A stretch of DNA of 56,489 nt, filler included, from Sphacelaria rigidula (GCA_964200075.2; 5 parts of 5 records of this genome joined end to end with filler, not necessarily neighbours in it); one strand, 5' to 3'. Positions 1-48,045 are shown, counted from the whole stretch's first letter. A program made the numbers and translations. The notes: generated by a model not told the origin, from the letters alone.

Positions 1-592
1 CGTGGTCAATGGTCAAACGACTAAGGCAAGCAACGAATGAGAACCCCCCCCCACCACCACCATCACCCCCCGCCTTAGGGTTGGCGTCGGTTGGCAACGA
101 CGGTGTCGAACACACCTCTCACTGCGTACGCTAAGCAACCAGGTGACCGTTTCTTGTTCTCATTTTCGTTTTTTTATAGTGACCATGATGGTGCTCGAGA
201 TAGACCGTGATGTGCGGGGTGGAGAACCTCAACTCCGCGCAAAGGAGATGATCATACCACGAAGTGCTCAAATGGTGAGACACCCATGAGGCAGTGTGGA
301 ACCCATGGCTGTCTCTGGAAGTAGCAATATCAGAAAATAAAGCGGTGCATTGGAGGCTCCCATCGATATGCACGATAATCAGTACGCTTCGGGCCGAATA
401 ATCTTAGCAGGGTGCAGCTCACCCTTCGTGCGACTCGCCGAAAATATCACGGCGCTTCGCGCTTGGTGACTGACTGAGAGCCTGGTCCGGCGAAAACCCG
501 GCGTGCTCCGTCCCGGCTTTGTAGGGATTCGAGGTCAATGGTCTCATCATGGAATGCGAGATCATGGGTAGCACCCCCCCCCCCCCCCCCAC
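1..592 (+). mobile_element. Poly(C)-ended retroposon composite: module A (partial) + C-run + ~430-bp body + module B + C-run
   Basis: Aligns by eye over its length with 30616-31212 (+) and 28383-28977 (-). Module B is at ~503-572. A further decayed B copy flanked by C-runs lies at ~646-740. Confidence 0.8.
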
Positions 593-2416
593 CCTCTCCC
601 CACCCTTCGCCCTATACTTCCCCAACCACCCCCCCNNNNNNNNNNAAACCCCGGCGCGCGCCGTCTCGGGTGTGTAGTGGTTTGTAGTCAACCGGATTCG
701 CATCGAAAGCAAGAGTATGTGTTCCCCCCCCCCCCCCCCTCCATTGTGCTTCTCTCAGCTTGTCCAACTTACCCACCCGCTTACCCTGCGTTGTTGCTGT
801 CACTCCTTGCCGTGTGCACACGCTGCACGCTGCCACGAACGCAGATGATGTTCATTCAATGCCAGCTCGCGGTATTGGGTGGATTGGTTTGTATGATACT
901 GGTTTGCTGGCGGCGACACGGCAGCATGATATCCGTGCTCTATGCCCTGCCCGGATCGGAAGACGCTTCTTATCAAGACACCCCTTGATTAATCATCTCC
1001 CAACTGACCGCAGGGAAAAGCGTGGGCGATCTGGGTACGGCATCACAAGTCATTTTTTACTTGAAGAAAAATGAAATGCTCATTCAGGACATGTCCACAC
1101 CCCACCCTGACAGGGAAACGGTTGACGAACCCCTTGGTTGGGGGTGTCGGATGGCGTCACTGGTCGGGTCCCACTCTAGATCGACCACGGGGTGAACAGT
1201 TATGTGAAAAAATAGTGCTCTGTGTTGTAGTTTAGTAGAAGGCACTCAAATGCGAGCCAGGGATAGACCGGGAAAATCACGTAAATAAACTGTGCCTCGG
1301 GTATGCTGCTGAGTGCTGTCATCAGGGATGCACGATGCTCGCAAGTATAGACAGGGAGAAGAACTGCTCGGCTGAGCACGGTTGTTTGATCAGGTGATTG
1401 ATTGAGGTTCGCATATCAACTAGTTCCCCGAGGATTCCATCCGTCATCACAAAATAGATCCATCTGTACCCCAGGAAAAAGTAAAACGAAGACACCCGCT
1501 GAAGGTAACTCGATAAGTTGTTCCGAAATGAGGTCTAGTGGCCTGGGAGGCATGATATGAGTTGATTGCCCCGACTTTTTCTTGTTTTTTCATGCGAAGC
1601 TCTCGTGGGATCTGTAGCGCAGTAAGAGAGAGTCGTATTATTAAGGTCAAGTTTATTACTGTCGACGTTAGCCTGTATGGATGGACGTACAGCGTACTTG
1701 CGAGTTGGAGGTTTTGAGTTGAGTTACCCCCTTCCCTCCCCCCGCCCCCCTCCCCAATGTGATCAATTGCGACCAACAAGATGGAGCGTTGGTGAGTTGG
1801 CTACTGTTCGTCTCTTCCTTTCGTGTATTGTGCGCTTTCAGTCGGTTAGGGCGCTGGGGCTGACTCGGAGTGATCAATTAGGATGACTGCGTCCGATTCG
1901 GAGTCGAAGGATCAAGTTGTCCTCTTTGATGGAGGGGGGAGATTATAATAATTGTTGTTTTGTTTGACCCTTTGGTCGTTGTTTGATGTATGTCCTTGGG
2001 TAAGGAGTCTACATATGAATATATTCAGGTTTCGCCGGAGAACCCGGGTACGGTATCAATCCCACTGAAAGTTAGTGTTTACCCGGTCGTTTGCTGAGAA
2101 ACTATCTGACTCACGCGGTGTACATATTGCTGTTGATGATTTGTTCGTAATGTACTACTGTATTGTACGAGAAAATGTGAGATAAAAAAGGAAAAAAAAT
2201 GGAAGTGAAAACGAGATTGACTAAGAAAATAAAATAAATGCTTTCATGAGAAGGCATCATACAGCACACTGATGATGGTGCAAACATGTTTACATACCTA
2301 CGTAGCCTGCTCTCCGGGTTTATGGTGTTTCCGGTGGATAGTCTTGGGCGGAAACAATTCTGTGGGAGGACTCTCGACTAGACATAGATCCTGAAAAATG
2401 GGAACAACATTTAATG

Positions 2417-6370: not shown

Positions 6371-6468
6371 ATAGTCTGAAATCTTGTCGAGGTGGTTACC
6401 GCAGGTGCAAACTCCCCCCCCCCCCCCCCTGCGCGCACGCGCGTCATCTTGTACGATTATCCGTCTCG

Positions 6469-6616
6469 ACAGGGACGCGTGATTAATGATCAAACGACTA
6501 AGGCAAGCAACATATGAGTATGTCTCGAAAGGAATGCGTGGTCAATGGTCACACGACTAAGGCAAGCAACAAATAAATGAGTACGCCCCCCCCCTCTCCC
6601 CCCTCTCCCTCCCCCC
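6469..6616 (+). mobile_element. Two tandem module-A copies (LINE 3' ends) with C-tail
   Basis: gtctcgaaaggaatgcgtggtcaatggtc...gactaaggcaagcaac..atgagtac occurs twice, preceded (6414-6429) and followed by C-runs. Confidence 0.85.
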
Positions 6617-11901: not shown

Positions 11902-12581
11902 ACTTTACTGGGGACGAGACGCCCGCTGGCGTTGGAGTATGACTATTACTCAGGGGCCAGGACAGACAATGCCCCGAAAGGACAGGCTATAGTGTTCCCG
12001 AGGGAACGTTCCCGGAACTACGTCGAGGGAGATATGGTCCCGTCGCGATTGCGGGCACGTGTAGACTTGTGGACTAACCTGGTACTTACAGTGGTGGGAA
12101 ACGCGTTCGTGAAAATCCATGCAGGATTATTCTGCTTTTTGTCGTGTTTGTCACATTCGCTGTGTTTTAAAAGGCCAAGAGCAAACAGAACCAGCGGCAG
12201 TCATGGACACACCTGAAAGCTAAAGCTAGAGATAGCGGAAATACAATCTTGAAGTTTTGCACGCGCCATCCCTGTCCCCTTCATCGCAGTACCCCGAATT
12301 TCAACGTTTCGATATGGAGCAATCAAGAGGCGGTTCATGGCATTCCATGTTCGTGAAAATAAAATGAGCGCCGTGCACGTAGTGGCATTGACTGCTCTGA
12401 CCAAGCGAACTACACCCTACGTAGACGCACTAAGGGAACAAAAAGTCCTCCGCATCCCCCACACTTATCATCATCTGTATGCATTTGACTGCACTTCATC
12501 CTTCCTGGCAGTGTTTGCCGTCTCCCTTTCCATATCCCCCTTCCGCCCCCGACGAACGCATGACCCACCCTCCACTCGCAG

Positions 12582-15500
12582 GAACGCCTAACACGCAATA
12601 AGCACGACGGCGGCGACACGGGCGAGCTGGTGCAGCACGCCCTGAGCTGCGTCGGTGCGACCCTGCGAGACGTCCGCCTAGTAGTCACCAACAACCACCA
12701 CCACCGTGTTCTGCCCTTCGAGCGGCGGATCCCGTGGTCCGTAAAAATGGGAGTTTACCCGCAGAGCTATGATAGCCCGCAAAATCTGATCCCCGAAGCC
12801 GAAGCCCGCGCCGAGCTGTCGCACCACTTGGCGCATGCCTGGAGCGCAGCGGAGCTGTCCCCGTTCGATCGCGGCTTGATCGTGGTCATGGACGGGATGG
12901 GGGAGGCCTATGGGGCGATGTCCAAGGCAGAAGCGACCTTGAACAGAGCGCGGGGGCGTCAACAGAACAAGGGCGTCGTTAGTGGTGCTGATGATGGAGG
13001 AAATGGCGGAACGGATAGGGTGGAGGATGACGTTCGATATTACAACGACTTGAGGCTCATGAGGGAAATGCGGGAGGAGGCGGGGGAGGAAGAGGGTGCA
13101 AGGATGGCGGCGGATTTTCAGCAGGTTCCAGAGGAGTTCGTCCCGCATGAGGCTTATCGCGAGGCGGAGAGTGCTTTCACTTTTGCTCCCAGCCCAGGTG
13201 TGGAATTTGTGTTTTATGCATGTGTGCGTTGTTTTGTGTAGCGTGTGTGCGGAAGGTCCTCCCAAGGTTGTTGGCTGCGGTGATGAATTCTGCGTGCAGG
13301 ATATAATGGACTGCGCATGCAACGCATCCCATGTGTGTACAGTGGAGTTGATGTACGAATGGACGCGAAATATGCAGTGTTGTGCTGCACTTGTTGCCTG
13401 GTCACGATCCCGGTGTGCGCCATTCGATGAAGAACGGGTTGTTCTGCAACCGTCCGAGGAACCACACCCTCGGCAGGGGCCTCCAGAGAGCATGTAGGCA
13501 TGAAAGACACCTTCGATCTCTCTCGTCGCTGCGTGGTACAGCATAGCTGCAGCATCCGCGGACGTAGAGTTAGTTCACTCGATCGACAATTCTCTCTACC
13601 CCCCCCCCCCCCTGGTCCGGCGGAAACCCAGCGTGCTCCGTCCCGACTTTGTAGGGATGCGAGGTCAATGTTCCTATGACTATGGTATGCGTGATCATGA
13701 GTACCCCCCCCCCGCCACGGCTCCCGAACAGATGGCGGACCGCCAGTACTGACCCCGGTGTACAAGCGTTGGACGCGGGAGCGATCCCCACCGGAGCTGT
13801 ACAATCACGGCTTCGAAAACATGGAATCCCTCGGTGCCGTTTACAGCCGCGTCAGTAGCCACATTTTCGGCGACTGGAATGCGTGCGGTGAGGAAGCAAG
13901 CGAGATCACTTGCGGTCTCTGATGAAAGAAACGATTTGTGCGTAGTGATAATTGCGCGACTCACACTGGCAGTGCCCCATACTTTTGACCGCATTTTTGG
14001 TCCTCTTTCTTTTCAACATAATTCCTTTTTTGTTGATAACACTTTGTTCAAGTGTTCAAAAAGTCGTGTATTTCATCTCCTACCGCACACCCTGCCGATC
14101 ATCTCATAGGCAAAGTGATGGGTTTGGCACCGTGGGCCTCGCAATGGAAATCAGTGGACCCGCCGCCGCAGCGATTGACCTCCGGTAACCTCCTTGGTGC
14201 GAGGAGTAAACGTGTAGGAGGCAAGGATAATGAGGACGTTGCGAAGTTCGGGGTGCACTGGGACGCTATAGAGGAACTGCGGCAGCCCAATGAGCTGAAT
14301 GATCCCGACGTCCGCCCGTACTACGCGAGTTTGGCATCTACCGTACAGCGGGATTTGGAAGAGGCCGCGATGAATTTCGTGTCAGGTTTACGGGAGCGAA
14401 CAGGCGAAGAGAACCTGTGCTTATGCGGCGGCGTTGCGTTGAACAGCGTGCTCAACGGAAAGATAGCGCGGGAGGTGGGTGGGCAAGGGGGAGCGAAAAG
14501 GAGAGAGTAGGAAGCATAGGGGACGGTGCTGGTGTAGTCGAGTGCTGTTGATCAACCCTGTAGGGTCGCTTCTGGACGAACTTCAAGCTGGGGAATACAG
14601 AGGGTGTTGCGGTCGAAATCTACGTGCAGCGCGTCGTCGGAGTCCCGCGCGGATAGAAGGATACCAAGATAACGCGTCGTCGTGGACAGGGTGTGCAAGT
14701 GTAGGACACTAACCGCTGACTTGGACGCGCGGGCGGGTGCAAGTGTTGTGATGGCGTATGCACAGCAGCAGCCGCCTTCGCGAGACAAGCGTAGTGTGGG
14801 AATCTAAGATCGGCGGGAACCCACTTCGCCGGATTCCAAGTTATCCCGACTTTACTCTTTATCGCTGTGTTGACTGTTGCTTGATCGCAGGCAGGTTTCG
14901 CGCGCGTGTTTGTGCCGCCCTGCCCGGGAGACGAAGGCATCGCGATAGGCTGCGCGGCGTTCGGGTACAGTCACCTACACCAGCTGCTGCCGCCTGCCTC
15001 GGGTACCGGCGCCGCTGTTGAACCTGAAGCTGTCAACAGGAAAGTGTCGGTGCCTGCCGCGGGGGTGGATCGGGAAGCAAATCCGGCAGCGGCAGTGAAG
15101 GCAGCACCGTTTTGGGGCAAGGGTTGGAGCGAGGAAGAAGTGGAAGATGAGCTGGAGGAATGGGTTCCATGGGTGGATGTTCGGCCGCTGACGAGATTGG
15201 AGGTGTGCATTCATGACATGTTGTGTAAATGTGTGCGTGCTGTGAGTTGATTTCTGTGCGTGATGGGCTGTACATTGCACAGCCTCATAATGCCAACGAT
15301 GGGAAACAGTGGCAGTTGTAGGGCCAAGCGACCTCATGTTTAGCGAGTGCCCCGTGTGGAAAGTTACAAAGACACCTTGCGGGGTTCTTGCGTGACCCGC
15401 CATCCCAATCTCGTTATGCGTCCGTGATGTTGCGGTTGCTGCCTTGTCTTCTCCCCTAGTGCTGTACGGGCTTGCACTTTGCATTTTTTCTGATGATTCT

Positions 15501-16493: not shown

Positions 16494-16570
<77 letters not shown>

Positions 16571-18152
16571 GCTTGCTTGCTTACTTGCTTCTCGCTCGCT
16601 TGCTTGCTTGCTTCTCGCTCGCTTGCGTCTGCTGCTAAGGCTGTGTTGCTGTACATGCCGGGATCTTCGTAGCGTGTTTCTTCTACAATGTTTTCGCGTT
16701 GCCGCCTTTTTCCTCGATCGAAAATGTGCCCATTTTGTTTTTTTACACGAATGTTACCGCATCGTTTTTTCTTCCGTGAAAGCTTCATCCTCTCCCCTTC
16801 CTCGGGACGAGTCTCTGGTCCCAAGACATCGCCCCATCTTTCCAGCTGCACACGCTTTGCATTTCAGTACCTCGATTTGGATCGTGACCAACACTACGGC
16901 ACGTCGTCGACTCTCGTCAAACAAACCCAAGTCAAACCCTATTTGCTACGCACGTCCTCACGCTTGCAAAGACGTGGATGGGATACTTTGAAGAAAATAC
17001 CCAAACGCATGTGGCGTGAGTTGAACCCGCGTTCTTTTGACCCTATTGGCGTCACTTGCACCATTAGATGGCAGCGTGCAATGTCTGTTTGAGGACGATG
17101 CCACACGTAATGCGCCAGGAGCGTCCTTCTTCCCCATGTTGTATAATTCTGCATCTTATCGATCTGACTTGACCCTGCGAGATTATGAGTTTCTCTTGCT
17201 GCTTGTTCCCCTTCGTTGACTGCCCACTTTTACACATCGCGACGACATGCGACATCTAAAATCAGATGCTATTCGGGCGTTGGTCGATTCGGCGGGGTCC
17301 ATCGACATGCTGGTCATGCACGACAGGGTGATCACGCTGCGTCCTTTCCCGCCGGACGTGGAAGTGGCGCAGGAGGAGCAGGAAGAGGAGGCTGAGGACG
17401 GCGACAGTCGCGGGGAGGCTGGACCAGAAGGCGGAGGCCAGGAGGAAGAGTACGATGATCGTGACGAGGATGGGGACTACATTTTGAATGACGAAGGATG
17501 GGAAGAGGGATTGCGACCGTTCCAAGCGAGACCGTTCATGTCGGAGGTTCTCGAACGGAATGGGGAAAATGTGAGTACTTGGTACGTGCTGCCGGTCTCT
17601 TCGCGGGCGGGAGTCGAGGTGGTGCCAGCCATGCAGATGTGCATGGTTAACAAACAGGTTTATCGTTGTACTTCTACCGCTTTGCCACACGTTTCGTTTA
17701 CACGGAAGCTGGATGTGATGGTACTCAGAGAACAACCTGAGGAGGTGATCGAGCGCCTGCCGCAATTAGAAACTAGACATTTGGTCCCCGCACCGGGCGC
17801 CGATTTGACTTGCAACATTCCCGTACCACGCAACTTTTTGCCCTGAACGTCCTTACGTGCGCACACGCAACAACAGGTGGTTCGAGTCCGGGTGAAGCCG
17901 GAGGATGGGAGGGGACAGTGGGTCGATCTGGACGATGAGTTTCAGCTCGAAATTCTGGTTCTCTCTGACGGATCGCGGAGTATCGGTAACATGGTAGATG
18001 AGACGATTGACGCGATGGAAGAGAATGAGGACGAGGATGAGGAGGGTGCAGAGATAGAAGAGAACGCAGAAAACGCCGTGCTTGGAGCGTTGCGTGTGCT
18101 GTACGCGAAGGGTCTCATCGGGTTCGATAGAATGGTGGAAGCGGTTTGGTAG
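12582..18152 (+). CDS. Carbamoyltransferase, NodU/CmcH/TobZ family (5'-partial, 8 exons, 827 aa visible)
   Basis: Exons 12582-13197, 13732-13887, 14110-14474, 14891-15202, 15528-15679, 16176-16477, 17266-17570 and 17877-18152, all GT-AG and phase-consistent. Motifs: ERLTRNKH, HHLAHA, DGMGE, SLGAVY, GKVMGLAP, GGVALN, GDEGIAIG, WFQGRGEFGPRALGSRS, KREDFRPFAP, HVDGSSRLQTV and LNTSFN..GEPIV. The first exon(s) were not found in the contig. Confidence 0.95.
13599..13713 (+). mobile_element. 5'-truncated module-B copy between two C-runs (intronic)
   Basis: gtgctccgtcccgactttgtagggatgcgaggtcaatg...atcatgagtac followed by a C-run. Confidence 0.85.
16494..16612. repeat. (GCTT)n microsatellite, intronic
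   Basis: Direct reading. It explains the LLAC/ASKQ repeats in the ORF track. Confidence 0.97.
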
Positions 18153-22426: not shown

Positions 22427-22468
<42 letters not shown>

Positions 22469-22537: not shown

Positions 22538-22637
22538 NNNNNNNNNNNNNNNNNNNNNNNNNNNNNNNNNNNNNNNNNNNNTTAATTAATTAANNNNNNN
22601 NNNNNNNNNNNNNNNNNNNNNNNNNNNNNNNNNNNNN
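22538..22637. other. Artificial contig linker
   Basis: N44-TTAATTAATTAA-N44. Confidence 0.99.
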
Positions 22638-27724: not shown

Positions 27725-30700
27725 GCTGCTGCTGCCATCTTTACATCAAAAACCGCTCCGATATCTACGGAGTACTCCGTACTGGGCATCTGATGCGGAC
27801 GCCTTGCGTGGTCACAAGCTAACTTTCCCAATATAGGGTGAAAGAAAGTCAAGAAAAAAAACGGACCCAGAACAATTTCACACAGACGCGATAAAAAAAA
27901 ACAGTAAAAAAGACGAAAACGATATGAATACCACTGGCTCCTTAAGTTTCATTGCCGTATGCAACCATTCAGGCTACTGTAGACAGGACTCATTGGTCCT
28001 CTCGACACGCGAGGCCAAACAGGAAGGGGGCCAAACTCAAGAACCATGATCACCAGCCATAGCGACGAGAATCGCAGAGATTCATCCTTGTACTTCTAGA
28101 GGGACAGCCATGTGTACGAAAATACTAGACATAACAAGAAGAGCACCACATATCAACACACACCACCTCGGGGGAGGGGTGCATGAAAGTCAGGAAATAG
28201 TAGGAAAAAAGAAGACGAGGGGAAATTATGGGAAGTCCTGCCACTTCCGCCATGCTCAGTTCGGTACACGCTGGCTGCGCATTCTTACATCCCCTCCCTG
28301 CTCGCTAAACGATGTTCTTCTTGGCTATTTGCGATGACGATTCCTTTGAATCCACCGGGCCTCGTTTTCTGCGGAGGAGGAAGAGGGGTGTGTACTCATG
28401 ATCTTGCATGCCATGACCATCAACCTTTGACCTCGCATCCCTACGAAGTCGGGACGGAGCACGATGGGCGTTCGCCGGGCCAGGCTCGGAATCAATCACC
28501 AAGCGCGAAGCGCCTGATGTGTTCCGCGAGTCGCATGAGGGATGACCTGCATCCTATTAAGATTGTTCGGCCCAGAGCATACTGATTGCATTGCATACGG
28601 ATGATAGCCTCCAATGAGTTGCTTCATTTTCTCGTATCGCCACGTCCAGAGACAGCCACGGGTTCCACACTGCCTCATGAGTGTCTCACCATTTCAAGAC
28701 TACGCGGAACCATCATCCCCTTTGTGAGGAGTCGAAACTCTCCACTCCGCACAATATGATCCGAATCGACCATCATGGTAACCGCAAAAAAAATACAAGC
28801 GAGGAAAAAACGGCAACTTGGTTGCCTAGCTTACGCAGTGAGTGGTGTGTTTTATAGCGCCATTGCCAATCGACGCCAACCCTTCACTAAGGGAGCAGGG
28901 GGGGTGGGGGGCGTACTCATTTGTTGCTTGCCTTCGTCGTTCGACCATTGACCACGCATTCCTTTCGAGACGGAGCAGGTGTACTCATGACCATGCATGC
29001 CATATCCATTAGAGCAGGGGGAGATTAAAAGATGTGACTCTAGCCAGGCGCAACACTGTGCGTATGTTTTTGCAAGTCATTTTCCAGCGAGCCCCCCGTG
29101 TACGCCAGTGCAGACTTCTTGTTACTTGATTTCAATGTACAAAACATCCTACATTCAAAAGTACAAAACCTTCACAGTTCAGGGGTCAGCCTGTTTTTTC
29201 GGTTAGGCCTTCGCCTCCCCTCACTATCTCCGCTCCCTTCTCTCTCCTCACCTCCTCCCCCGTAACGATCCGCTTTATCGGCGTCATCACGACGGCTGTA
29301 CCACACGCGGCCACCTCCTTGAACGAAGCTACCTCGGCAAGGGGCACAGGCCTCTGCTCCACTACCATGCCCATGTCTGCCGCCAGCTCCATGAGGGACT
29401 TGTTGGTGATAGACGGGAGGACCGCGGGACTGTCCGGCGTGACGTACTTGTTGTCCTCCGTGACGGCGAAAAAGTTGGAAGTGGAGAATTCCTGTAGGTG
29501 AAAACATATAATGAGGCGTTTTTCAATGTCTTACTGCGTCATTATCACCATCATCGTCCACACAACGATTTTGAAAAGGCGTGCAAAAAACTTGAACATA
29601 TTTCACCACACTTGAAAGTTTTTTTTTTGTTCACTTTTTTTTGTCGAAATAAGATTTTGATAAAAAATCAAGACGTGAATAATAAAAACGCGCTATTGAA
29701 TCACACCACACGGTGCTCATGAGGTTGACGGCATCGGATCTAGTCGATGCAGACAAACACCATGTGGTTCACAGCTTGCAGTACGGGCGCCGAACGTCGT
29801 TCATCTCCGTTCACAGTCCACAGAAACGGAAACGCTGGAGGCGACACGACCGATTGGTTGCTTGATGGATTGAATACTTTTCGATCTGTCTAGAGTGAAG
29901 CGAGGTATTTATACGCCAACCGTTGATGTTTCTGAGAGCTTTTCCATCGGTCACTGCTGGAGGTCATCCCCCTTTACAGAGAGAAACCAGTACGTCGCTC
30001 CAATGTCAGATCCCACGATTGGTTTCTCATCGGAGACTATTTCTAATGTTTCCGCATCTTCGATACCAAAGCAGTGGCTATTCGGTCAGTGCATCCTGAA
30101 CGCACATCGGAGCTGTCACTCTTGGGGGACAACGTCGTGCAGTATCATGTAGTATTATGTACTGCATACTATTGGAATCGGATAACATTAGGCAAAAAAT
30201 ACACGAATGTCCTGTTTTAGTCATTATCGTAGCAAACAAAAACGAATAGGAACAACAGCAAATGGTAATCAAAAAACCATTTTGTAAGCCGGTTGATGTT
30301 GTCGGATTGACAAGTCAGACGAGGCATGTCGTTTCTAGAGGAGAGGGCTCCGATAGCTATTCCGGGGGAGGGAGGGTGACTGAACAGTATGACATCCGGA
30401 TCTTGACTGCAAAATCCCTAGCACCTGCAAACGAAGTCAGTGGGGATCCCGATCCCGACCAGAATGTTCATGTTACAGACGTTATCAACAGTTGAGGACA
30501 TATGAAAAAAAATGACTCTCCCCAGTCCCTCAGTATTGAACCAGCGACCATCGTTTCCGTCCACATACGCGTGCCCGCGATGCGCCTATATAAGCTCCTT
30601 CACCAGCATCAACACGTGCTCCGTCTCGAAAGGGATGCGTGGTCAATGGTCAAATGACTAAGGTGATAAACAAATGAGTACGCCCTCCTCCCCTTCAACG

Positions 30701-33533
30701 GCTGACGTCGGTTGGCAACGTTGTAAAGCACACAACTCACTGCGTAAAAAAAAGCTGGGGAACAAGGTTAAATATTCGTTTTGCGCACTTGCGTTTTTCT
30801 TGGGGCATCCACGACGGTGGTCGACTTAGATAGTACTGTGCGGGGTGGGAGAACTTGAACTCCGCGCAGAGGGAGTGATCGTACTACGCAGCGTCTAAAC
30901 GGTGAGATTCCCATGACGCAGCGTAACCCGTGGTTGTCTCTGGGAGTGGTGATACCAGAAAATGAAGCAGCTCATTGGAGGCTGTCATCCATATACAAGA
31001 TAATCAGCACGCTTCGGGCCGCACATCTTGGCAGAATGCGGATCACCATCCATGCGACTCGCCGAACACATCACGGCGCTTCGCACTTGGTGATTGCAAA
31101 ACTAATCCGGCGAAAATCCGATGTGCTCCGTCCCGGCTCTGTAGGGATGCGAGGTCAACGATCTTATACTACGGCATGCAATATCATGAGTACACCCCCC
31201 CTCCCCCACCTTCCCCTCCACCAACACCAACTCCTCCCAACCTCGGCTCCTGCTACTCCCCTGAAAACACTGCGGGAACAACAAAGCGATATCTAGATTG
31301 ACATATCATTACACATACAGCAAAGCACCTCGACAAACGTGTTGGTTTTGGCGTCCAGGTACAGCCCGATGGGAAAACCCGCTTTCTTGGCCAACATATT
31401 TGGCAGCATATCCGCCGCGTAGTTTCCCGCAACCTGCCAAGCGGCCATAGACACACGCACACACGCCGGCGTGACGCGCCCGGTGGGCGAGAAAGGGCGG
31501 ATGAGAAAGGTGAGGGTTGGTTATTATCAGAGCACCCACTTCCTGCTCTTTGCTTGCCGATAGAGGCTGGTTCACGCTTATCCAACTGAAGACACTCATC
31601 GGCAAAAGTTTACGCCGTTTTCAGGAGCGAGACCCTCAATTTTTGCACAAATGTGCTACGGATCATTTCGCAATTTCGAAGGCCGCAGCTAAGTTCAGGA
31701 TTTTCTTCGCCGTTTTCAGGGGGTCCCGGGTTTTTCGGAGAAACTTGCATCCTGTCTGACCCCCGAAAAACGGTGAAAAAATTGAAAAAAAATCATTCAC
31801 CCGAAGTTTGCGTAGTGACCCATAGCACATTTGTGCAAAATTTCACAACATAGCTGGCAGAACGGCGTGAACTTTTGCGCGTTTGTGCGATGAACTTTTC
31901 TGTGCCACGGTGAAACCGCGAACCACTTGACGTTAGTATGAAAACGGCGGTTGGGGGCCTTTTTTGCCGTTAACATGAAAATTTCAAACATCAGTCAATC
32001 AAGGTTGGCCACGAAACTTTGTGGGGCCCTTCCTTGGGTTATGCGGCGACAGTTCGTCCTAAAAAAGTGAAAAAAAAATATCGCAGTGCCGGTCTTCCGG
32101 GGTCCCAGAATGGACACTACTGTACTTCGAACAAACGACTCGGATTCCGTCTAACCCCGAAAAACGGTGAAAAACGGTGAAAATGAAAAAAAAAACTCGT
32201 CCATCCGAAGTTGCGTGGTGACCCATGGCATATTTGTGCAAAGTTTGAGGGTCCAACTCCTAATAACGGCGTAAAGTTTTGCGCATTTGGGCGAGACGGG
32301 AGCTTGAAACGTGCAGACTCCCAACTGCTTGGTTTTCGTATGAAAACGCGTCTTCTGGGTGAATTTCACGCCAAAGCAAGAAAACATCAACGAGATTTTC
32401 GAGTTTCTCGATCAAACTTCGTACATGTGTTCCTTGGACTATCCCGGGACGCATCATTTTATTTCTCTTCCTTTGAGGCATTCTGTACCGCCTTCCGACG
32501 ATCTTCATACTGGCACCGCCGGAAGCCGGTACAGAACATGAATTTTGAAATATTGTCAAGAATGTAATTTTCCATTTTGAGCATCAATACCTACGGAACA
32601 GTCAAGTTTGAGGGCGAGCTGAGCTGTTCTACAACAGATAAGAGGGAAACCGTCACGAGGCTCCCTGGGCCTTTCGCGCGTATCATTAGTGGAAATTTAG
32701 ACGACGCCGAAACTCCACATCACCCAAACATCACAATTTCGGGTATAATTCGACCCCGTAGAAACGATTTTCAAATATGTTCTTTTCAGTTGACACCTGA
32801 CGATGGCGGCTACTACGACTTGAGGTATGCGGAGATTGGGTGACAGTGGGCTTGGGATTCGTAATTTCGATCTCGGAACAATTTGAAGGGCGCTGAGTGG
32901 TCGAGGTACCTTTTTGCCTTTAGCGCAATCATTATGGCCTCGAACATAAATCCGGCTATGTCACGCTCTCCAGCTGTCCATGGCGGTCAGTATGATATCA
33001 TGTATGAGACTATTGGGTAAGTATTGCGAAACGCATTTACTGGTGACACAATTTTGGGTGGTGAGCGTGAACCAGCCTGTACCACACTACGTTTGCCTGT
33101 AAACTCATCATAGCGTTACATAACACAAGCGGTAAATAATTTGAGCACCGCATCCTGGTGCTTGTGCTCACTCGCCAATCATGCCGACTCACACTCACAC
33201 AATTGTTTCATGTTTTGGAGAGTGACGAAGACACAACCCGACACACCACACCAAAGCGGGCAGGAGCGCGGACAGCAACAGCAAACGCAAAATGCACGTT
33301 TATACCTTAACGTGGCCAACACCCTTGGGGGCCGCTCGGTCAAAATCCCCCATGACCACCGCCGTGTTGGCCTTGGCCCCGCCCTTGTAGTAGTTCCCCA
33401 CGGGGATAGCCATGACCAGCAGCGTGTACTCGTCCGCCGGCTGAAGGCCAATGCGCGGGCCGGACCCGAACAGCAGAGGGCGCAGGTACAGCGCTCCTTC
33501 GTATCCGTATGGGGGAACGAACTCCATGTTTGC
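26721..33533 (-). CDS. BCAT: Branched-chain amino-acid aminotransferase (class IV PLP), 5'-partial, last four exons (231 aa)
   Basis: Exons 33533-33306, 31433-31329, 29491-29252 and 26843-26721, all phase 0 and GT-AG. Motifs: GALYLRPLL, RAAPKGVGHVK|VAGNYA (PLP lysine), LYLD...FVE|EFSTSNFF, LPSITNKS, EVAACGTAVVMTPI and EDKFGWM. Confidence 0.96.
28383..29003 (-). mobile_element. Poly(C)-ended retroposon composite (B 3' fragment + A + body + B), in a BCAT intron
   Basis: Reverse complement of 1-592. Module A is at 28913-28977 and an extra B 3' end at 28981-29003. Confidence 0.8.
30616..31212 (+). mobile_element. Poly(C)-ended retroposon composite A-body-B, in a BCAT intron
   Basis: Starts at gtgctc (30616) and module B ends at gagtac (31193). 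Flanked by a degenerate 21-bp direct repeat 30595-30615 / 31213-31233 (16/21 identical). Confidence 0.8.
31590..32560. repeat. Intronic element with an internal ~395-bp-period direct repeat (probable non-autonomous DNA transposon)
   Basis: ccccgaaaaacggtgaaaaa...gtgacccat.gca.atttgtgcaaa at ~31760 and ~32155. Ends not resolved. Confidence 0.55.
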
Positions 33534-33740: not shown

Positions 33741-33778
<38 letters not shown>

Positions 33779-33855: not shown

Positions 33856-33955
33856 NNNNNNNNNNNNNNNNNNNNNNNNNNNNNNNNNNNNNNNNNNNNT
33901 TAATTAATTAANNNNNNNNNNNNNNNNNNNNNNNNNNNNNNNNNNNNNNNNNNNN
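33856..33955. other. Artificial contig linker
   Basis: N44-TTAATTAATTAA-N44. Confidence 0.99.
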
Positions 33956-34150
33956 TTTGAGTGCGAGCCTGGCCCGGCGAAAACCCGGCGTGCTCCGTCC
34001 CGGCTTTGTAGGGATGGGAGGTCAATGGTCTTACGACTATGGCATGCATGATCATGAGTACACCCCCTCGGCTCCTCGGTGCTCCGTCTCAAAAGAAATG
34101 CGTGCTTAACGGCCAAAAGACTGAGGTGAGCAACAAATGGCTCCCCCCGC
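33956..34150 (+). mobile_element. Module B followed by module A
   Basis: B ends gagtacacccc (~34061), then gtgctccgtctcaaaagaaatgcgtg... (A, ~34079-34140) and a C-run. Confidence 0.8.
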
Positions 34151-36537
34151 CGCCCCTTCCCCCCTGCTCCTCCTTCCCCTGTTCCTCGGCAAACGGATTT
34201 CCATCACTATTAGCGTTCTTCGTGTGCCACGACTTCGAACGAAATGGAGACAAGGGGCACTCGATAGAGATCGCTGACTTCATCGCTCCATCAAAGCAGG
34301 TATTCACTTGGGCGCGAAATGTGTCATGGGCGGAACCACGTGTCTGCCAAGTAAGCCCGCTCGTTTCTGCCGCAAAACGCTTAAAACGTGTTGACGTGCT
34401 GTCGGTACATGACAGATTCATCAGGGGCATTGACACTTCAAATGCGCAGCTTTTAGGGATCTTTGGTGCGAAAACACTTGCACATTTAGAACAAATCAAC
34501 CAAGAGTTTACATCGGTATGGATTGACGATCGCGCTACAATGGAAGTTTGGTAGTTGAGGAGTGAATTCGTCTAGAAAGGTGATTATATTCAGATAACTT
34601 ATTTTGGCAATAGAACCATCGTTCGACGACAACTGAGTACGTGCTTTCTGCTTTTGACCGACACTTTCTACAATAGCCCCCCCCCCAAAAGTGCATGGTT
34701 TTGGGAGGCAAAATCTTCACGTAAACCAAAATGGAAAAAGCCGAGTACAACGAGAAGCTGGGAATTCCCACGCTTGGGTTCGTTCTCGCCGATGTCGCCC
34801 ATATGAGGCGCTTCATGCAGTCTGAACCCAAACATCAGGCGCTCGATGACAACTATTTTCGTGACACTTTCGGGCTGGTTTTGTGGGGGGGGGGGGGGGG
34901 GGCTACCGTAGAAAGTGTCGACAACTGATGCGACATGATTTCGTTGAAATTTTTACCCGCGACGTGAAGATGGGCTGATTTTGTCAGAGTGAGTGACACT
35001 TTCGCATATGAAAAACAATTATCTCAGGTGACGAGTCCCTACAGTATAGTGCGGCGACACTCTTGAGAACCACGATATCCAACCACCGCCACGGTCGCTT
35101 CAATACGAGGGTCTGAAGACATACAACACTTGCGTAACATAATCCTGGCTCGCACAATATCAACGATGTCAAAGTGACGAATGAATAGCAATGATTTGTG
35201 AGTTTGTCATCGATGGCAACATACTCATTTTGAGAGTTTTCGTTTTTCGTAGAATTTGTGACACGTCGTTCGCCGGCGAATAGGTTTGGAGAGCATGAGG
35301 CCAACGGATCGTGCCCAAGGATCGAAGCAGACTGTACCATCATGCATCCCAACACGCTTCGTTTGACACACATGCAGTTTACAGTCGAAAAACGGTAATG
35401 TCCACCCCGACTCGGAGGTTTACATCTCGTCAGATGCTGCAGAATTTCGCCCAGAGAAGACTTTGTAGCTGAGCGTGGGCCGGGCCCAGATATATTGCTC
35501 ATGTACTAGAATTTTTCCGTGAGTGTTGTTGAGCCGCCCGGCTGCAACGTCGGCCCACGGCTGTTTGTTGCGTTTGCTGTTCTTCACGCTCAAGAGGGAG
35601 CACCCAATTTATAGAAGTGCCTATAGTTCTTAACTATCAACTTCATTACTCTACTCTGATTGCTTTTTTGCTCGACATACAGTCGAAATGGGCGATGATT
35701 TTTATGTCATTTACATGGGGACGGTATTTTCTGTTTGCTTGTTGGGTGATGTCCGTATCGTGTGGTGTTTGCCTTGGAATATTATGCCTTTCAACCGCCC
35801 GACGCACTTGAAACGGTAACATCGGTGTTGAAAGGCTCAACGATGGGTGTAAGCACAGTTCCGCTGTGATGCGATTATTGAGACAAGATTCAAGGTCACG
35901 TTTTCAGATTCCGTGATGGGTTGACGCCGTTGCCCCAAAGAATGGGGTCTGTCGAAACATAACTGACACTTGTGAGTGTCGCCCCCTTCCTCTACGGGTG
36001 TTGAACCGTCCTATTCTCGTGCGCTTCCAACAAAATTAGATGGCTGCGAGATTTTGGCGTTCCCTGATGGCGGTGGCGGAGATGGTGAAGACACGTCGTT
36101 TACCGTCGGACAAGGACGAAGTCTCCAACCTATCCGACGCCGACGTGGTAGTGAAACGCTTCCAGCAGAAACTCGATTCTTTCGAATATTTGTACTGTGA
36201 AACTCGCGGTCGGTAGGATCTGGGTTGGTGGCGGTTGCGCAGTCACCACGACTGTACTGCTGAGCACTCAATACCCTCATCGTTCATTAGTTTGCAACTT
36301 AGCCGAGACGTTCTCAGTAGGTCATATTCAGAAGATAATACGAAATATAGATTGCAGACCAACAGACGGTTGAAGAAGATCTCGTTCGATACGATGTGGG
36401 GATGGATGATGTACATTTTGATATGGCGGTTATTCGGTTGTGATGATTCCCAGGTGTAGAAATTTCAAGGAACGGCATATCCTGCGCGGTAAACGCAGGA
36501 TCGGGCTAATACCTAGCATGAAGGGGGAGGGAGAGGG

Positions 36538-36890
36538 CGTACACATTTGTTGCTTGCCGTTGTCGTTTGACATTGACCATGTGTCCCTTTCAAGACGGAG
36601 CATCGCAAGCAAGGGGGCGGGGGAGGGGGGGGGAGGTGCTCATGATCTTGCATGCCGTAGTCATATGACCGTTGGCCTTGCACCCCTACAAAGCCGGGAC
36701 GGAGCACGCCAGGTTTTCGCCGGACGAGGCTTGCAATCAATCCCCAAGGGTGAAGCGCCGTGGGATGTGCGGCGAATCGCATGAAGGGTGAGCTGCATCC
36801 TGCTCAGATTATTCGGCCTGAAGAGTACTGACTATCTTGCATATGGATGACAGCCTCCAATGGGTTGCTTCACTTTCTGGTATCGCCACT
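36538..36890 (-). mobile_element. 5'-truncated body + B + C-run + A insertion
   Basis: Flanked by near-identical tgaagggggagggagaggg (36519-36537) and tgaaggggagggggaggg (36891-36908). Confidence 0.8.
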
Positions 36891-37917: not shown

Positions 37918-38152
37918 GCTTTCCTCCGCAGCACAGCAATGTTTGGCCAGAGCGAATGTATCTACCGTACCTTCAACATTTACGAACAGGGATTGTGCAG
38001 CATTCTTCTTCGTAGCTCATTCAGGGTTCTTCTCTTCTCCTGTGTTTCCTTCTTTCTGTGTTGTGGTAAGGCCACACTGTTTGGGGTTGTCCCGCCGGAA
38101 ATATGCCTCCCATATCTCCTCGTTGTAGCATGTGTGCGTGTTGAGGGGGGGG

Positions 38153-38192
38153 GGCGTACTCATTTGTTGCTTGCCTTAGTCGTTTGACCATT
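38153..38192 (-). mobile_element. 40-bp 5'-truncated module A with perfect 15-bp TSD
   Basis: gtgttgagggggggg at 38138-38152 and 38193-38207. Confidence 0.9.
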
Positions 38193-40155
38193 GTGTTGAG
38201 GGGGGGGAGGAGGAAATCCCATCGGCAGGCGGCTATCGCAGGGTTCACATAACACAGAAGGGCGATGGATTAGCGTTGGACGATTGCGTCCTGAACCTGC
38301 ATCGTTCGATCGCGGGCTAGACACTATCGACGGCTGTGCCGGAAATGGTGTGCGGAGAGGTAGTAAGTACTGCCGGACTTGAAATGGAAGCATGTTCTGT
38401 TTCATCCTAAACCAAATACAAACCCTAAACGTCAATCGGCAGGTGTAATGACTACCCTTTTCCGTGCGTGTTTCTCGAGCACAGGACCCGGCACGCTTCA
38501 ACCTAAGTTCATGGATGTTTTGTCGACTCTGATCTGGATTTATCCATTCGTATGCTGAGTCGGCATCATGTTTACTTAGCGGGTGACTGCCAAAATTAGC
38601 CGTCATCCCGCAGGCACCCCAAGCCAAGTTTGAGCGGGTGTGGCTGGGTTGGAAACTTGTGAGCTGTATTTGTTTTCGTGTATGGGAGGTTCTCCTGGTG
38701 AAGCTGTATACCGCATAAATAATATCGGCCTCTTGTTGATGCCAACAAGCGCTAGAAGCTTACTCCGATTTTCACCTGATGTCTCGTCTAAATAACGGCA
38801 GCTTAGTGTGCTTCAGGCTTCTGCGGTGTGGGTAGTGTATCCAGCTTTCTTCCACGCTGAGGTCGCGGGTGCAGATACTCCGTAGAGACCTTCGAGCGTA
38901 CTAACTTGTACAACGCCTCCTGAACAAACACGAGTGTTTATGGTGTTTTATCACGTATTGTGAACTCCCACATGCACGGCGTTGCTTAACGCGGCCGGAG
39001 AAATAGTCATGTTACAATAGAGAGTGGGGTGTTTGATTCCACGAAACATAAGGCTTATAGGTGTGTCAGACAACCCAACACACTCGAGGTGAGCTTGAAG
39101 TTTGGTATAAACGGCGTAAAGTTGTATGAATGAGCGTTATTTATCGGTAACAAGCGTGTTCTAACAACCTTTGCTGCTTCCAACGACGATCTCAAAGTGG
39201 AGTTTTGGTGGGGAAAGGGCCCAAAATCCCCCCCCCCCCCCCTTTCCCCTATCGTATCATGACTCGGAATGGCCTTGTGTAACACCTTCGGATTCCCCCG
39301 ACGAACGATGTCTTTTAGCCCATTAGGAACCCATACACGGTGGTGTTCAACGCGGCCGGCGGAAGGGAATGGTCGAATACCTTAGAACATCCCCCAAAAC
39401 AGACGTTGCTCAACGCGACCGAAAACGCTATGTGCAAAAACACGAAAACCCACTCTCGGGGAATGTGGTTCATGAGGTGACGCGGACCTTTCACTGCACA
39501 GCATCGTTTTGGTATTTCGTGTTGCGAAGCGTGACCTCGACTGAGCAAGTCTCACACAGCCGCGACAACGCGGGGCTCGGTCTAAGAGTAATTTCTTTGA
39601 TAATCTAGCCTGTCGTTTCCGTAAGGATCCCCAACAACCCACGGATCTTTGTGTCTTCCGATAACCTTGGTCCGCTATACAGACCACTGGTCGTAGCAAT
39701 ACCTACTTTTCGCTGTTCTCCAACCGTTTCAGTTCGCAAGCGTTTATATACGCAGTAACTCCAGGCGACTTCACAGTGAGCGAAGTTCCCGATATTTTTG
39801 TGAATGACTGCGTGAAGCACTATGAGAACTTAAAATGGATATTTTCTGACAATGGCCAGCAGATTTGTTCCGATCACTCTTGACCATTACACAAGCTCAG
39901 GGACGAACTTTTTTATACGTGTGAGAATATATCTGGCGCATGTCTGCCGGATATAGTCATGGAGAGTATCACAGACGACGATGTGCAGATGAAGGATAAC
40001 GCCAAACGAGATCGTGACTATACGAGATAGAAACAATCATGCGTAATACATATGTAAATCGCGTAGCTCGTGGTGTATCTCCTAAAAAGCCAGGTTGACA
40101 TGATAGTGCTATGGTTTGCAGCATCACCTGCAGAATATTCAGGGAAACTGATGAG

Positions 40156-44100: not shown

Positions 44101-45172
44101 GTTCCGAAATCTTGCAAAATGGTACTCCTCTAAGGCACCGAGGAGACTGGAGGCCCCGAACAGGTTGAAACCCCGAGCCCAGAGGTTGGTGCTTTTAGTA
44201 AATGAAATGTGGGTTGTCTTTCTATGGGCTATAGCGCTTCATGTTCGGGCCTGGAATTTGTTCTGACCGAAAAATTCAAACTGCACTGTCCGTGATTTTT
44301 CAGAACACGCAGCAGCTGCTCCTTTCGGGCCATGTTGATATGCTCAATGTGTTTTTATCCTTCGTGGTCGTTGGGGAGGTATTGAGATGTTGGAAAATTG
44401 AGAATGGTTTCCGAAAAAAAGTTGTCGGCAAGTTGCGAGAGCCAGAACTAGTTTCTTGGACGCTTTCGGGCTATTGAATGCTCGAGATATTCACCCGTTC
44501 AACGTCGGCGTAGGACGTACACCATTTTTTACAATTTTGAGCTCCATTTCTTTTTTCCATCCTCACTAAGGGTCTATCGAAATAATATTTTGGGACACGT
44601 AGGCCCCAAGATCGAAAAGTCGAGTTTTTGAAGGGAGAAGGGGGGACACCCAGCCTGCCGTCTCCTAGTTTATTGCCGAGGCGTTGGCGGATGCGGTCAG
44701 CTGCCGTGTACAGAGATCCTTGGCATAGAGGCCGCTGAGATGTGACGGACACACCGTCCCTCCCAGCTCATCACCCACCATACAACAGCTACAGTTGTGA
44801 AATCATGTTCCGTGTCGTGTGCCTCGATTACCTACCACTAGTAGTCTGGGTAAATTTGGCGAGGTGTGAGATAATGTTGCTACCCTGGCTACAGGATGTC
44901 GCTACCGTGCGCTCGTGTATTGTCCGCGGATGTGTGTGAGCGTTGCCGGCATCCGAGGTCATCGGGACAGGGTGCGCAAGGAGCAAAAGCATGTATACGA
45001 ATCTCGTAAAGCCCGCCAGATGTTTCGGCTCTTATCAGCGGTTGTTGATCAATTTCTTTTCAACAATATCAACAAAAAAATCCAGAAAATCACCAAAAAA
45101 TCACAAAAAAAAGTCATGACAATTTCGAAAAATTGTCCTTCGGGAGGGGGGGGGGGGGGGCGGGGGGCCTCC

Positions 45173-45272
45173 NNNNNNNNNNNNNNNNNNNNNNNNNNNN
45201 NNNNNNNNNNNNNNNNTTAATTAATTAANNNNNNNNNNNNNNNNNNNNNNNNNNNNNNNNNNNNNNNNNNNN
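45173..45272. other. Artificial contig linker
   Basis: N44-TTAATTAATTAA-N44. Confidence 0.99.
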
Positions 45273-45717: not shown

Positions 45718-48045
45718 GGGGCGGGGGGGGGGGAGGTTCGCATTCGTTGCTTGTCTTAGCCGTTTGACCATTGACCGCGCATCGCTTTCGAGATGAAGCA
45801 CCGTCCCTACTACTAATAGAGACAACTCCAACATTCCGGCGCTCATCACGTTTCTTTCCACAGCCCATTACGTTTCTTCCTTACTTTACACAAGAAAGCT
45901 TTCACATATCTCATCTCCGTCCTGTTTCGCCGTCTCTGGCCACAACCTACCTCCTGGTATAGTCATCGTTTTCTCCCTACTGCCAAATGCATCGAACGAT
46001 TACATGCTATCGTCGTTCGCGTCCCGCTCTTCCCCCTTCAGCACGTCCCGTTCCTCTTTGGAAAGTTCACATCACACCATTATATGACTTCTGCTCTTCA
46101 TTCTTTCGCCACAGAGGCAGTTCTATCCATTTACTTCCTCGTCCTTTCGACGACTGGTTCATCTTTTTCTCCTTTCTGGCAGGTCCAGGTCGCCCACCCG
46201 AAATCGCAGCTTCATATTTTTCGCGGCATCCATTGAGTCGTGCAAATGTGCTTCCATCCTTATCCCTTCCCTCAACCACCCGTATATCTCCAGGTGTTCT
46301 TCCTCGTCTACTTTGCGTGTAAGCGTTCTTTTCCCCTTATTTCTATCATGTCTCTTACTTTTGCCTTGTACCCCGCGCCTTCACCTATGGGCAGCATTTC
46401 ATCTTGGGTTCCGCCTATCTCCTTCCATATTTCTCGACTTCTTTATTCCACCTTATTCCAGCTTGCCCTTTCGTAAGCTTCTTCCATACAGCCTAATCAA
46501 CTATAGCTGTCAATCTCTTTCTCTGCATCTGCTTTACGCTATGTTACCATCGCAATTTCCTCATGTCTCTGTTTGGTTTTAGTGAGTACCTCCCCAACTC
46601 TGCTCTCAAAGCTGTATTACGCGTTGTTTTCGAGCATCCAAGTGTCCTCTTAGCTGGTGCCATCTGTACTGTTTCCAACCTCTCCACCAACTTCACGTTC
46701 CTCTCCCATACTTCCCTTGCATATTCCAGCTTTGGTACGGCCACGTTTATGAGGATACATCTCTCAATCCTTGTCTCTAAGTACGGGTCTCTGAGAATTA
46801 CATCCGTTCCGCCTACCTGTGCCTGACCCTTTTTTGTTACTTTGTTTATGTGTGCATCACAATATCAGTTTCTTGAGATCTCTATGCCAAGGTATGTGTA
46901 CTGGTCTACGATCGGCAGTTTCTCGTTTCCCCACTTCCATTTGAACTCTACCGGATCTTGCTTATCTTCGATACACACGAGTACCGCGCATTTGTTGACG
47001 TTCGCTGCCACTCTCCATTTCCTCGTGTGTTATAGCGCCTTGTCTATCTGTGTCTGCAACCCCTCTGGTATTGCTGAAATCCCCACAAAATCATCCGCAA
47101 GCATCAATCCTGATACCATATCTTCACCAACCCTGACCCCTTGCTTTGCTGCTTCTATTGCTATTGTCGAGTAATTGATGAATATCTTGATCAAAGTGGG
47201 TGATAACGTACATCCTTGTGCAACTCCCTGTAAGATATCGAAATGTTTCGATATTTCCCCGTCTAGCATCATGGTGTTTTTGGCACATTATGTAATCTTC
47301 TTCACCATTCTCCACATCTTTCCTCTGATCCCCCAGCTTCCCCCAACTGTTTCCACAACCCATTTCTCCATACTGTGTCATGAGCCTTTCGCACATCCAG
47401 AAGAAAACAATACGTTGTCCGTCCGGTGTCTCCTACCCTGAATAACCTTATTTTGTGCGTACACATAGTCTGCGCAACTACGCTTTGGTCTAAATCCTGC
47501 TTGTCCCTCGCTGATTAATTCATCCGTTTCTAGCATCGCTCCTACTCTATCGTTCAGAGTCTTACAGAATGTTTCTCTACCGTGCTCAGTAGGGTCATCC
47601 CTCTCAAATTCCCTGGGTCCGCTTTGTCTCCTTTTTTGAAGACGTTGACTACTACTCCTTCTCTCCACCTCTTGGGTGTGTACTCGTTTCCCAAATCAAG
47701 CTGTACAGCATAACCATAGGGGTAATCATTTCTTCCCCCCCGTACTCGAGAAATCTCTTCGTTACTCCGTTTGCCCCTGCCGCCTTGCTGTTCTTGAGTT
47801 TAGTTACGCACTCCTTCACTTCATCTCTAGTACACTCCTTGGGGGGGTGGCCCTGGTGCCGTGACATTCCGCTGTGGGGCCCCTTGGTCTAATAACGTCG
47901 ATATCGATATTTGTTTCGATACGCGGAAAATGACCCGATACGTATCGATACTTGATACTGAAAGTCGATACGATACGATACGATTTGGTTGTTTCCGTTG
48001 GGGCGCAGCTTGCAAACCCCCACGGTAGTACACTGACGACCTAGC
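45718..48045 (-). mobile_element. 5'-truncated, decayed LINE (RT + C-terminal Cys/His motif) ending in module A and a poly(C) tail
   Basis: Broken frames give KLKNSKAAG, EGQAGFRPKRSC, GVAQGCTLSPTL, LMLADDFVG, YTYLGIEIS, PKLEY, KLRFRVGDLDLPERRK, CLCG..SHIM..C and then ERRNVGVVSISSRDGASSRKRCAVNGQTAKTSNE. The last 20 codons are module A. The C-run is at 45718-45733. Confidence 0.93.
47837..48025. mobile_element. 189-bp MITE with 9-bp TSD inserted in the LINE
   Basis: TSD tagtacact at 47828-47836 and 48026-48034. Ends ccttggggg / cccccacgg. A 9-bp TSD suggests Mutator-type mobilisation. Confidence 0.8.

Follow-up and report, generated by a model that had tools for sequence, protein, structure and literature searches.

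Modules A and B are two short sequences that recur through the stretch of Sphacelaria rigidula DNA analyzed here (GCA_964200075.2; 56,489 nt, hereafter the window). They are 66 to 72 nt long and, judged by their sequences, homologous. Module A is the last 66 nt of a long interspersed nuclear element (LINE) whose single open reading frame (ORF) encodes an endonuclease and a reverse transcriptase (RT), and module B closes a noncoding partner that resembles a short interspersed nuclear element (SINE). Our results are consistent with a model, which we consider probable, in which the module is a 3'-terminal recognition structure for the RT that is common to the LINE and its partner. Behind this model stand the position of the module, its overlap with coding sequence, its sharing between the two elements, frozen synonymous sites, conservation biased toward stems, a strand asymmetry of folding energy, and C-rich target duplications. 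An initial annotation of the window had treated A and B as one strand-specific RNA fold linked to the LINE, and the A and B strings that it quoted are present where it had placed them. The view of module A as a LINE-linked RNA signal is partly supported, but its coding content, the last 21 codons and the stop, had been missed.

The 3' ends of the LINE and of its noncoding partner

LINE loci were collected by pattern scans of public metagenome contigs and GTDB genome contigs, and five of them carry module A (L001 to L005). In L001, L003, and L005, an intact ORF of 1253 to 1426 residues with Exo_endo_phos and RVT_1 domains (Pfam) continues into module A, which encodes its last 21 codons and the stop (..NGAPSRK(G/R)CVVNGQ(M/T)TKASNK, then stop). 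The stop codon TGA lies 4 nt (GTAC) before the last base of the module, which is followed by a G, then 8 to 20 C, and then unrelated flanks; poly-C and unrelated flanks follow all five of the fetched LINE 3' ends. RTE-like elements have a very short 3' untranslated region (UTR). A single ORF with an apurinic/apyrimidinic-type endonuclease and an RT, with only 4 nt from the stop to the G and poly-C tail, is the layout of an RTE-X-type element. A relationship of the LINE to the RTE-X elements known from the brown alga Ectocarpus is probable and rests on the description in the Ectocarpus paper and on two Ectocarpus protein matches. These matches came from a database search with the last 200 residues of the LINE protein, which returned four relatives that are 63 to 74% identical for the three covering the tail. 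The terminal peptide is kept in three of the four relatives, and the two that their source assigns to Ectocarpus sp. CCAP 1310/34 (P0004 and P0005) have the same terminal peptide. Both P0004 and P0005 are chimeric gene models in which unrelated domains, such as a polymerase of a long terminal repeat (LTR) element, are fused to the C-terminal part of the LINE ORF.

Scanning of viral contigs with the LINE protein gave no relative, and a protein cluster atlas returned generic RT/endonuclease clusters and nothing more specific. No RT was found by a Pfam scan of 37 window ORFs, and the LINE body was recognized in the window only via the fetched loci and one decayed copy (45724-47837), which terminates in module A (45736-45801) and poly-C (45723-45733, G on the plus strand). 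Two of the fetched loci are titled as bacterial metagenome-assembled genomes (MAGs), L004 as Sulfitobacter and L005 as an uncultured bacterium. Both carry the eukaryotic LINE, with an intact or partial ORF, and these contigs are probably algal contamination of bacterial bins. On the element strand of L005, positions 6-146 hold two direct repeats of ~80 nt, 82% identical and each with a T run; they lie ~0.85 kb upstream of the ORF and could be LINE 5' UTR or flank.

Module B closes a noncoding unit that has its own C-rich tail and duplications. By self-BLAST, the last ~185 nt of a spacer that we call X (~30938-31122) and the B that follows it (to ~31205) make up an abundant ~265-nt SINE-like unit. 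The four sequencing runs used all consist of contigs. Abundance was read from DNA run X1, and the figures given are summed contig depths, not copy numbers. Along the composite that starts at 30616 and has the order A-X-B, depth steps from 426 to 48,000 to 2.2 million. Depths of 2.2 to 4.3 million for the ~265-nt form, 48,000 for a longer form, and 426 for the composite, against 71 for single-copy flanks, suggest that the partner is abundant in the first of these forms, rarer in the second, and rare as the composite, which is ~590 bp long and runs A-X-B. Module A itself reaches ~9.8 million against the same 71. The window ORFs tested that overlap or flank composites have no Pfam domain, and B is out of frame because its loop is 5 nt longer than that of A. 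We infer that module B is the same 3' handle on a noncoding SINE-like partner that would borrow the LINE enzyme.

Copies of the module are frequent in the window, where GTGCTCCGTCNC with at most one mismatch occurs 10 times compared with 0.8 expected from shuffles. A search with nhmmer found 16 copies in the window, and a covariance model built on the initially annotated structure gave 16 window matches and 5 more in fetched loci. These 21 copies were aligned, by the model, to that structure. A whole-MAG search with model R1 gave one further B copy. Truncated copies always retain the end with GAGTAC and C and lose the opposite end, which makes the plus strand of 30616-31193 the sense strand and bears out the orientation assumed at the outset.

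Constraint on the RNA and the predicted fold

Comparison of L001 with L003 points to constraint on the RNA rather than on the protein at the end of the ORF, as far as can be read from these sequences. The two proteins share 75% residue identity overall. Third-position identity ranges from 0.40 to 0.80 in 49 other full 25-codon bins, whereas in the last 25 codons all third positions (25/25) and all synonymous codons (22/22) are identical. The only two changes within these codons are both nonsynonymous, and 3 of the 98 nt in the frozen block (-32 to +66) differ. That synonymous sites are frozen while the changes are nonsynonymous is what would be expected if selection acts at the RNA level.

Differences between the A and B consensuses avoid the stems. 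A mask of paired columns was taken from the minimum free energy (MFE) structure of L001, which was chosen without reference to B. Under this mask, 1 of 42 paired and 8 of 21 unpaired columns differ (Fisher P = 3.7e-4), and none of 62 circular shifts of the mask reaches as low a count. With the initially annotated pairs as the mask, the counts are 1 of 32 and 8 of 31 (P = 0.013), so that the stem-biased conservation between consensuses that had been put forward as a test was found with either mask. The sole paired difference is a change from U-G to C-G at pair 11-18, and this pair occurs in three pairing states, U-G in L001, U-A in L003, and C-G in B. In the B2 subfamily (L004:2645-2718 and L008), a G is inserted in one strand of an arm and a C in the other, adding a pair. 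By parsimony, the peptide changes C>R, V>A, and K>T in the relatives would result from U21>C, U28>C, and A46>C. The first two of these would turn G-U into G-C and U-G into C-G, and the third falls at an unpaired base. A hand check in which four of five substitutions at paired sites keep pairing is marginal (roughly P = 0.07 on ad hoc assumptions) and was not counted as evidence.

The sense RNA of module A is predicted to form a three-way junction with a 6-bp closing stem (GUGCUC/GAGUAC), a 5- to 6-bp hairpin with a GAAA loop, and a second arm, longer and interrupted, whose tip is GGUC-NNNN-GACU. Hairpin 1 reads CGUCUC-GAAA-GGGAUG in A and CGUCCC-9 nt-GGGAUG in B, and hairpin 2 is GGUC-4 nt-GACU. 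As the initial annotation had described, the closing stem and both hairpins are in both consensuses, both loops differ, and module A has a GNRA tetraloop, GAAA. The MFE structure of LINE-borne A is the annotated junction with the second arm lengthened by G27U28C29/G47G48C49 and G22C23/G52C53. Its sense-strand MFE is -17.3 kcal/mol in L001 and -18.2 kcal/mol in L003, with modest z scores of -2.0 and -2.4 against dinucleotide shuffles; the antisense values are far weaker (-6.9 and -8.4 kcal/mol; z about +1). Four G-U pairs (3-64, 8-21, 11-18, and 33-44) are possible on the sense strand only, again as described. On these predictions a conserved fold is likely in A and probable, if less secure, in B. 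Bases 13-16, 30-34, and 43-47 of A correspond to the GAAA loop and an internal loop, AAUGG/CUAAG, and we take the latter to resemble loosely the 11-nt GAAA-tetraloop receptor; B is without the GAAA loop and without the A at base 46.

Boundaries, tails, and copies in the window

Module A has a real and sharp 5' boundary at base 1. Five of the eight evaluable A copies (at 30616, 28978, 34079, 36603, and 6456) start at base 1 (±1) next to unrelated upstream DNA, and none of seven B copies starts at its own base 1. The initial annotation had several A copies beginning near the base of the closing stem, which is confirmed; the enrichment of 5' ends that it expected there is found for A and fails for B. 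It may stem from processing, from an RT stall, from a template jump, or from microhomology. Among the best-supported contigs listed for run X1, LINE sequence extends upstream of the module in 924, poly-C immediately precedes base 2 in 392, and the end of B adjoins the start of A in dozens. Some of the X1 junctions fall at CUCC (bases 4-7), for example poly-C joined at 30619, and microhomology of C-rich targets with CUCC could create part of the hotspot at base 1.

Flanking duplications start with C runs, as in CCCCCCCTCAACA at the truncated A copy at 38193 and in CCCTCCCCCT..TTCA, a single C-rich duplication that stands on both flanks of the chimeric insertion at 36539-36890; the B at 13633 has poly-C on both sides. 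Duplications that start with C suggest that the C tail is primed by a nicked G-run, and priming at C tracts would explain why elements pile into each other's tails. In L1, duplications begin with A, and the homopolymer poly-A tail merges with the duplication. The duplication TTCACCAGCATCAACAC around the 30616 composite is put forward tentatively, as an imperfect match found by reading the flanks. The chimera of X-B and A within one duplication (36539-36890) would be the outcome expected from template jumping at the 5' end of A RNA. The positions of these copies are collected in Table 1.

Table 1. Module copies, composites, and related insertions, with positions counted from the first base of the window
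Feature	Position	Strand	Evidence and remarks
66-nt copy of module A that opens a ~590-bp A-X-B composite	30616..30681	+	92.9 bits; MFE structure is the three-way junction
C-rich tract after A, then spacer X	30682..31122	+	Self-BLAST; contig-depth steps
Module B copy, 3' end of the noncoding partner	31123..31193	+	Followed by C-rich tail 31194-31216
Probable target-site duplication, left copy TTCACCAGCATCAACAC	30599..30615	+	Right copy ~31217-31233, 13/17 identical
Module B copy cited in the initial annotation	33990..34061	+	
Module A copy from base 1	34079..34144	+	17 nt after the preceding B
Second A-X-B composite	28391..28978	-	A 28913-28978, B 28392-28462; 74% over 617 nt
5'-truncated B adjoining the second composite and preceding it	~28979-29020		
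Chimeric insertion	36539..36890	-	Truncated X, B 36636-36707, C-rich linker, A 36539-36603
5'-truncated, decayed LINE copy, 2.1 kb	45724..47837	-	BLAST against L001 and L003, 76-81% identity
Two head-to-tail A copies	6456..6584	+	6456-6521, and 6522-6584 from module base 8; poly-C after
A copy truncated at base 30	38152..38193	-	13-nt duplication CCCCCCCTCAACA on both flanks
Third A-X-B composite, cut by the window start	1..602	+	A 1-44, B 503-573
5'-truncated B copy from 20 nt before B	13613..13704	+	Poly-C on both sides

The window is a size-sorted chain of unplaced contigs and not one locus. Linkers of 100 nt (N44 + TTAATTAATTAA + N44) stand at 11220-11319, 22538-22637, 33856-33955, and 45173-45272, and the pieces between them are nearly equal in length (11,218, 11,218, and 11,217 nt). 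Features on either side of a linker are therefore not linked in the genome, and five or more separate contigs supplied the module copies compared. The 56 kb contain 21 runs of nine or more C or G (22428-22466, 33741-33778, 45146-45160, and 18 others), several of them without an adjoining A or B module. The longest (38 to 39 nt) are near contig ends, as though the assembly tended to break at C/G homopolymers.

Other sequences also adjoin C runs. Poly-C followed by TATCGTAGGATGA.. was seen in four cases (7428-7438, minus strand; 7571-7594 and 39228-39242, plus strand; and L003 after its poly-C), twice as an inverted pair across a gap, and is possibly the terminus of another repeat that adjoins C tracts. 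Two copies of ..GACACTTTCTAC(A/G)(A/G)TAG face each other at 34677-34686 (plus) and 34885-34902 (minus), each running into poly-C, and represent another family that ends in a C run. A diverged third module at 646-723 ends in ..GAGTATGTGTT and C16 (poly-C 724-739). Over its first 32 nt it is 81% similar to the start of B together with the block upstream of B, and its ends, GCGCG and UGUGU, could still pair. It was considered as a case of covariation in the closing stem and set aside, being a single and probably decayed copy.

Elsewhere in the window, the truncated B at 13613-13704 sits within a carbamoyltransferase gene region whose pieces (12564-16635, plus strand) match Carbam_trans_N and Carbam_trans_C with a best E value of 1e-37 and lie in several frames, as if split by introns. 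The remains of an LTR retrotransposon occupy 48857-51864 on the minus strand, with an integrase zinc-binding ORF at 48857-50227 and a Gag zinc knuckle ORF at 50743-51864. A weak match to a Ty-like capsid is at 53842-54267 (plus), and an interstitial telomere-like repeat of three TTAGGG units lies inside a contig at 3368-3385.

A model for the module, its rivals, and known systems

In the model that we favor, the sense RNA of module A would fold into a three-way junction at the 3' end of the LINE RNA, and the LINE protein would recognize both the fold of this junction and some of its conserved bases, among them GGUCAAU. Target-primed reverse transcription would start from the C tail, which would anneal to the nicked G-run of a C-tract target. 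The noncoding partner would carry module B as the same handle and use the LINE enzyme. The RNA signal for RT binding proposed in the initial annotation is supported by the position at the LINE 3' end, the sharing with the partner, the synonymous freezing, and the substitutions that avoid stems; the covariation between copies that it expected is absent.

Several results weigh against the model. Among the 21 aligned copies, 90.1% of cells are paired compared with 89.9% in column shuffles (229 of 500 as high), and only one cell is changed on both sides of a pair; most of these copies are dead and decaying neutrally, so that the test is low in power and gives no support. RNAalifold with all 21 copies retains hairpin 2 only (-1.9 kcal/mol). 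Fold z scores of B copies are weak (-0.9 to -1.1), and in seven B copies the A-like fold lies 6 to 15 kcal/mol above the copy's own MFE, partly because the 9-nt loop GGCUUUGUA can pair with the junction UGCGAGGUC in a competing 9-bp hairpin incompatible with hairpin 1. When the module is embedded in the LINE, GGAGUA upstream of it offers a rival partner for UGCUCC (bases 2-7). Intact LINE lineages at the DNA level comprise two independent ones only, and the bases U21>C, U28>C, and A46>C are deduced from proteins and not seen. Conservation is no weaker in junction motifs (GGUCAAU and GGCA.GCAA, for example) than in the stems, so that recognition of sequence is not separable from recognition of the fold. 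The alternative 9-bp hairpin of B is seen, for example, at 36636-36707 and 28392-28462 (both minus strand), and variants in four copies keep its pairs; it could act as a structural switch or have arisen by chance.

The absence of covariation above shuffles, the junction motifs, and the preference of B copies for other folds would all be expected if the module were read as primary sequence, either as RNA or as DNA at integration, with the fold incidental to an ancestral shared sequence. We regard this as unlikely, since the differences between A and B avoid paired columns (P = 3.7e-4; 0/62 shifts), pair 11-18 takes three pairing states, B2 has a compensatory pair of insertions, and folding energy is strongly asymmetric between strands. 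Selection on the C-terminal peptide of the LINE, rather than on RNA, is already contradicted by the data, and we give it next to no chance. The module is in frame and its terminal peptide nearly invariant across relatives, as this reading would have it, but the synonymous sites are frozen (25/25), the only two changes are both nonsynonymous, and B keeps the same bases though it is noncoding and out of frame by virtue of its 5-nt longer loop.

The sharp boundary of A brings in a further alternative, in which the module delimits itself. Either a self-cleaving fold of a new type or an enzyme like RNase P, reading the 12-bp stacked helix plus N-CCC, would cut the RNA at the 5' base of the module. 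The resulting RNA of ~75 to 90 nt would be copied by the RT and concatenated via template jumping, and its C tail may be extended by an enzyme of the CCA-adding type. Such cutting would account for the five of eight A copies that start at base 1 (±1) after unrelated DNA, for the 392 listed contigs with poly-C before base 2 compared with 924 that continue as LINE, for the many joints of B ends to A starts, and for the X-B/A chimera within a single duplication; the closing stem and hairpin 1 do share one continuous 12-nt 5' strand. Yet B has the same stems and not one of its seven copies starts at base 1, microhomology of C-rich targets with CUCC may account for part of the hotspot, an HDV-like topology is impossible because bases 1-6 pair with the 3' end, and the module has neither an Rfam match at E <= 10, all ribozyme classes and tRNA included, nor one from ARAGORN. 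We therefore consider self-delimitation improbable; if true, the module would be the smallest LINE-dependent mobile unit known.

The ribozyme activity that the initial annotation had entertained finds no backing in known classes. A hepatitis delta virus (HDV)-like ribozyme is a nested double pseudoknot that has the 3' strand of P1 in mid-fold and is cut at its 5' edge. In the module, bases 1-6 complement only bases 61-66 and there is no HDV-type Rfam match at E <= 10; hammerhead architecture is likewise absent from the module. Its remark that the module resembles no recognized class agrees with our searches, which gave zero Rfam matches at gathering thresholds for the whole window and zero at E <= 10 for modules A and B (hammerhead, twister, pistol, hatchet, tRNA, 5S, 7SL, and others). 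Weak Rfam matches (MEG8_3, snoR86, pemK, and others) are located outside the modules and were taken as chance. In a search for a tRNA or tRNA-like cloverleaf, ARAGORN found 0 genes in the window.

The recognition structure that we propose would be a concrete and testable RNA handle for a very high-copy system of LINE and partner in a marine alga; a literature search found no mechanistic work on LINE mobilization in this algal group. Three features are unusual for its kind: the handle overlaps the stop codon, both tail and target are C tracts, and a discrete 66-nt mini-copy exists. Because the handle overlaps the stop, termination of translation and loading of the protein would take place on one and the same 66-nt stretch, which could give cis-preference a physical basis. 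The module also explains many assembly breaks at C/G runs and shows that two contigs labeled as bacterial MAGs carry a eukaryotic LINE.

Among known systems, L1 is similar in having a homopolymer tail that merges with a duplication of the same base, which implies that the nicked target anneals to the tail. It differs in that the homopolymer here is C and not A and that recognition here appears to need a structured module as well. A literature search on poly-C-tailed non-LTR elements and on RTE-X tails gave nothing relevant. The Pr77/L1TcRz sequence of the trypanosomatid L1Tc/ingi elements is described as lying within the element's first 77 nt and folding into a double pseudoknot of the HDV-like type (PMC3185411, PMC4035085). 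As described, it too is a short module common to autonomous and nonautonomous non-LTR elements, and it defines the RNA 5' end; CCTGGC...CGTG upstream of B is a superficial likeness. The module studied here occupies the 3' end, its fold is nested, and it is without an HDV-like P1 partner; identity with Pr77/L1TcRz is ruled out by this position and topology, going by the published accounts (PMC3185411, PMC4035085, PMC4748587).

A 2025 survey of transposable elements in Ectocarpus describes autonomous RTE-X LINEs and a nonautonomous RTEX-N1 of ~600 bp that share a 3' end (PMC12477816). By that description, the likeness is that of an abundant LINE family with a ~600-bp noncoding partner conserved at the 3' end (PMC12477816). 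Identity with RTEX-1, RTEX-2, or RTEX-N1 is a lead, the comparison being by description only. The main text of the survey is without the terms "stem-loop," "poly," and "homopolymer," and the fold, the poly-C tail, and the overlap with the ORF are not described in it (PMC12477816).

Of known systems, the module comes nearest to the 3'-tail stem-loops that stringent LINE/SINE pairs have in common, and the binding role predicted for it follows that kind. The stem-loops shared by UnaL2 and UnaSINE1 of eel and those of ZfL2-1 and ZfL2-2 of zebrafish are reported to be needed for retrotransposition and to be bound by the ORF2 protein (PMC1636434, PMC4176376). According to these reports, each is a conserved structured element at the very 3' end of a LINE RNA, also present in a nonautonomous partner and standing directly before a simple-repeat tail; the module shares this placement and is predicted to be structured. 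The reported structure is a single hairpin and the reported tail a pentamer repeat, whereas the module here is a predicted 66-nt three-way junction with a poly-C tail. Furthermore, the module overlaps the last 21 codons and the stop, leaving practically no 3' UTR, its loops differ between the LINE and the partner, and its host is an alga.

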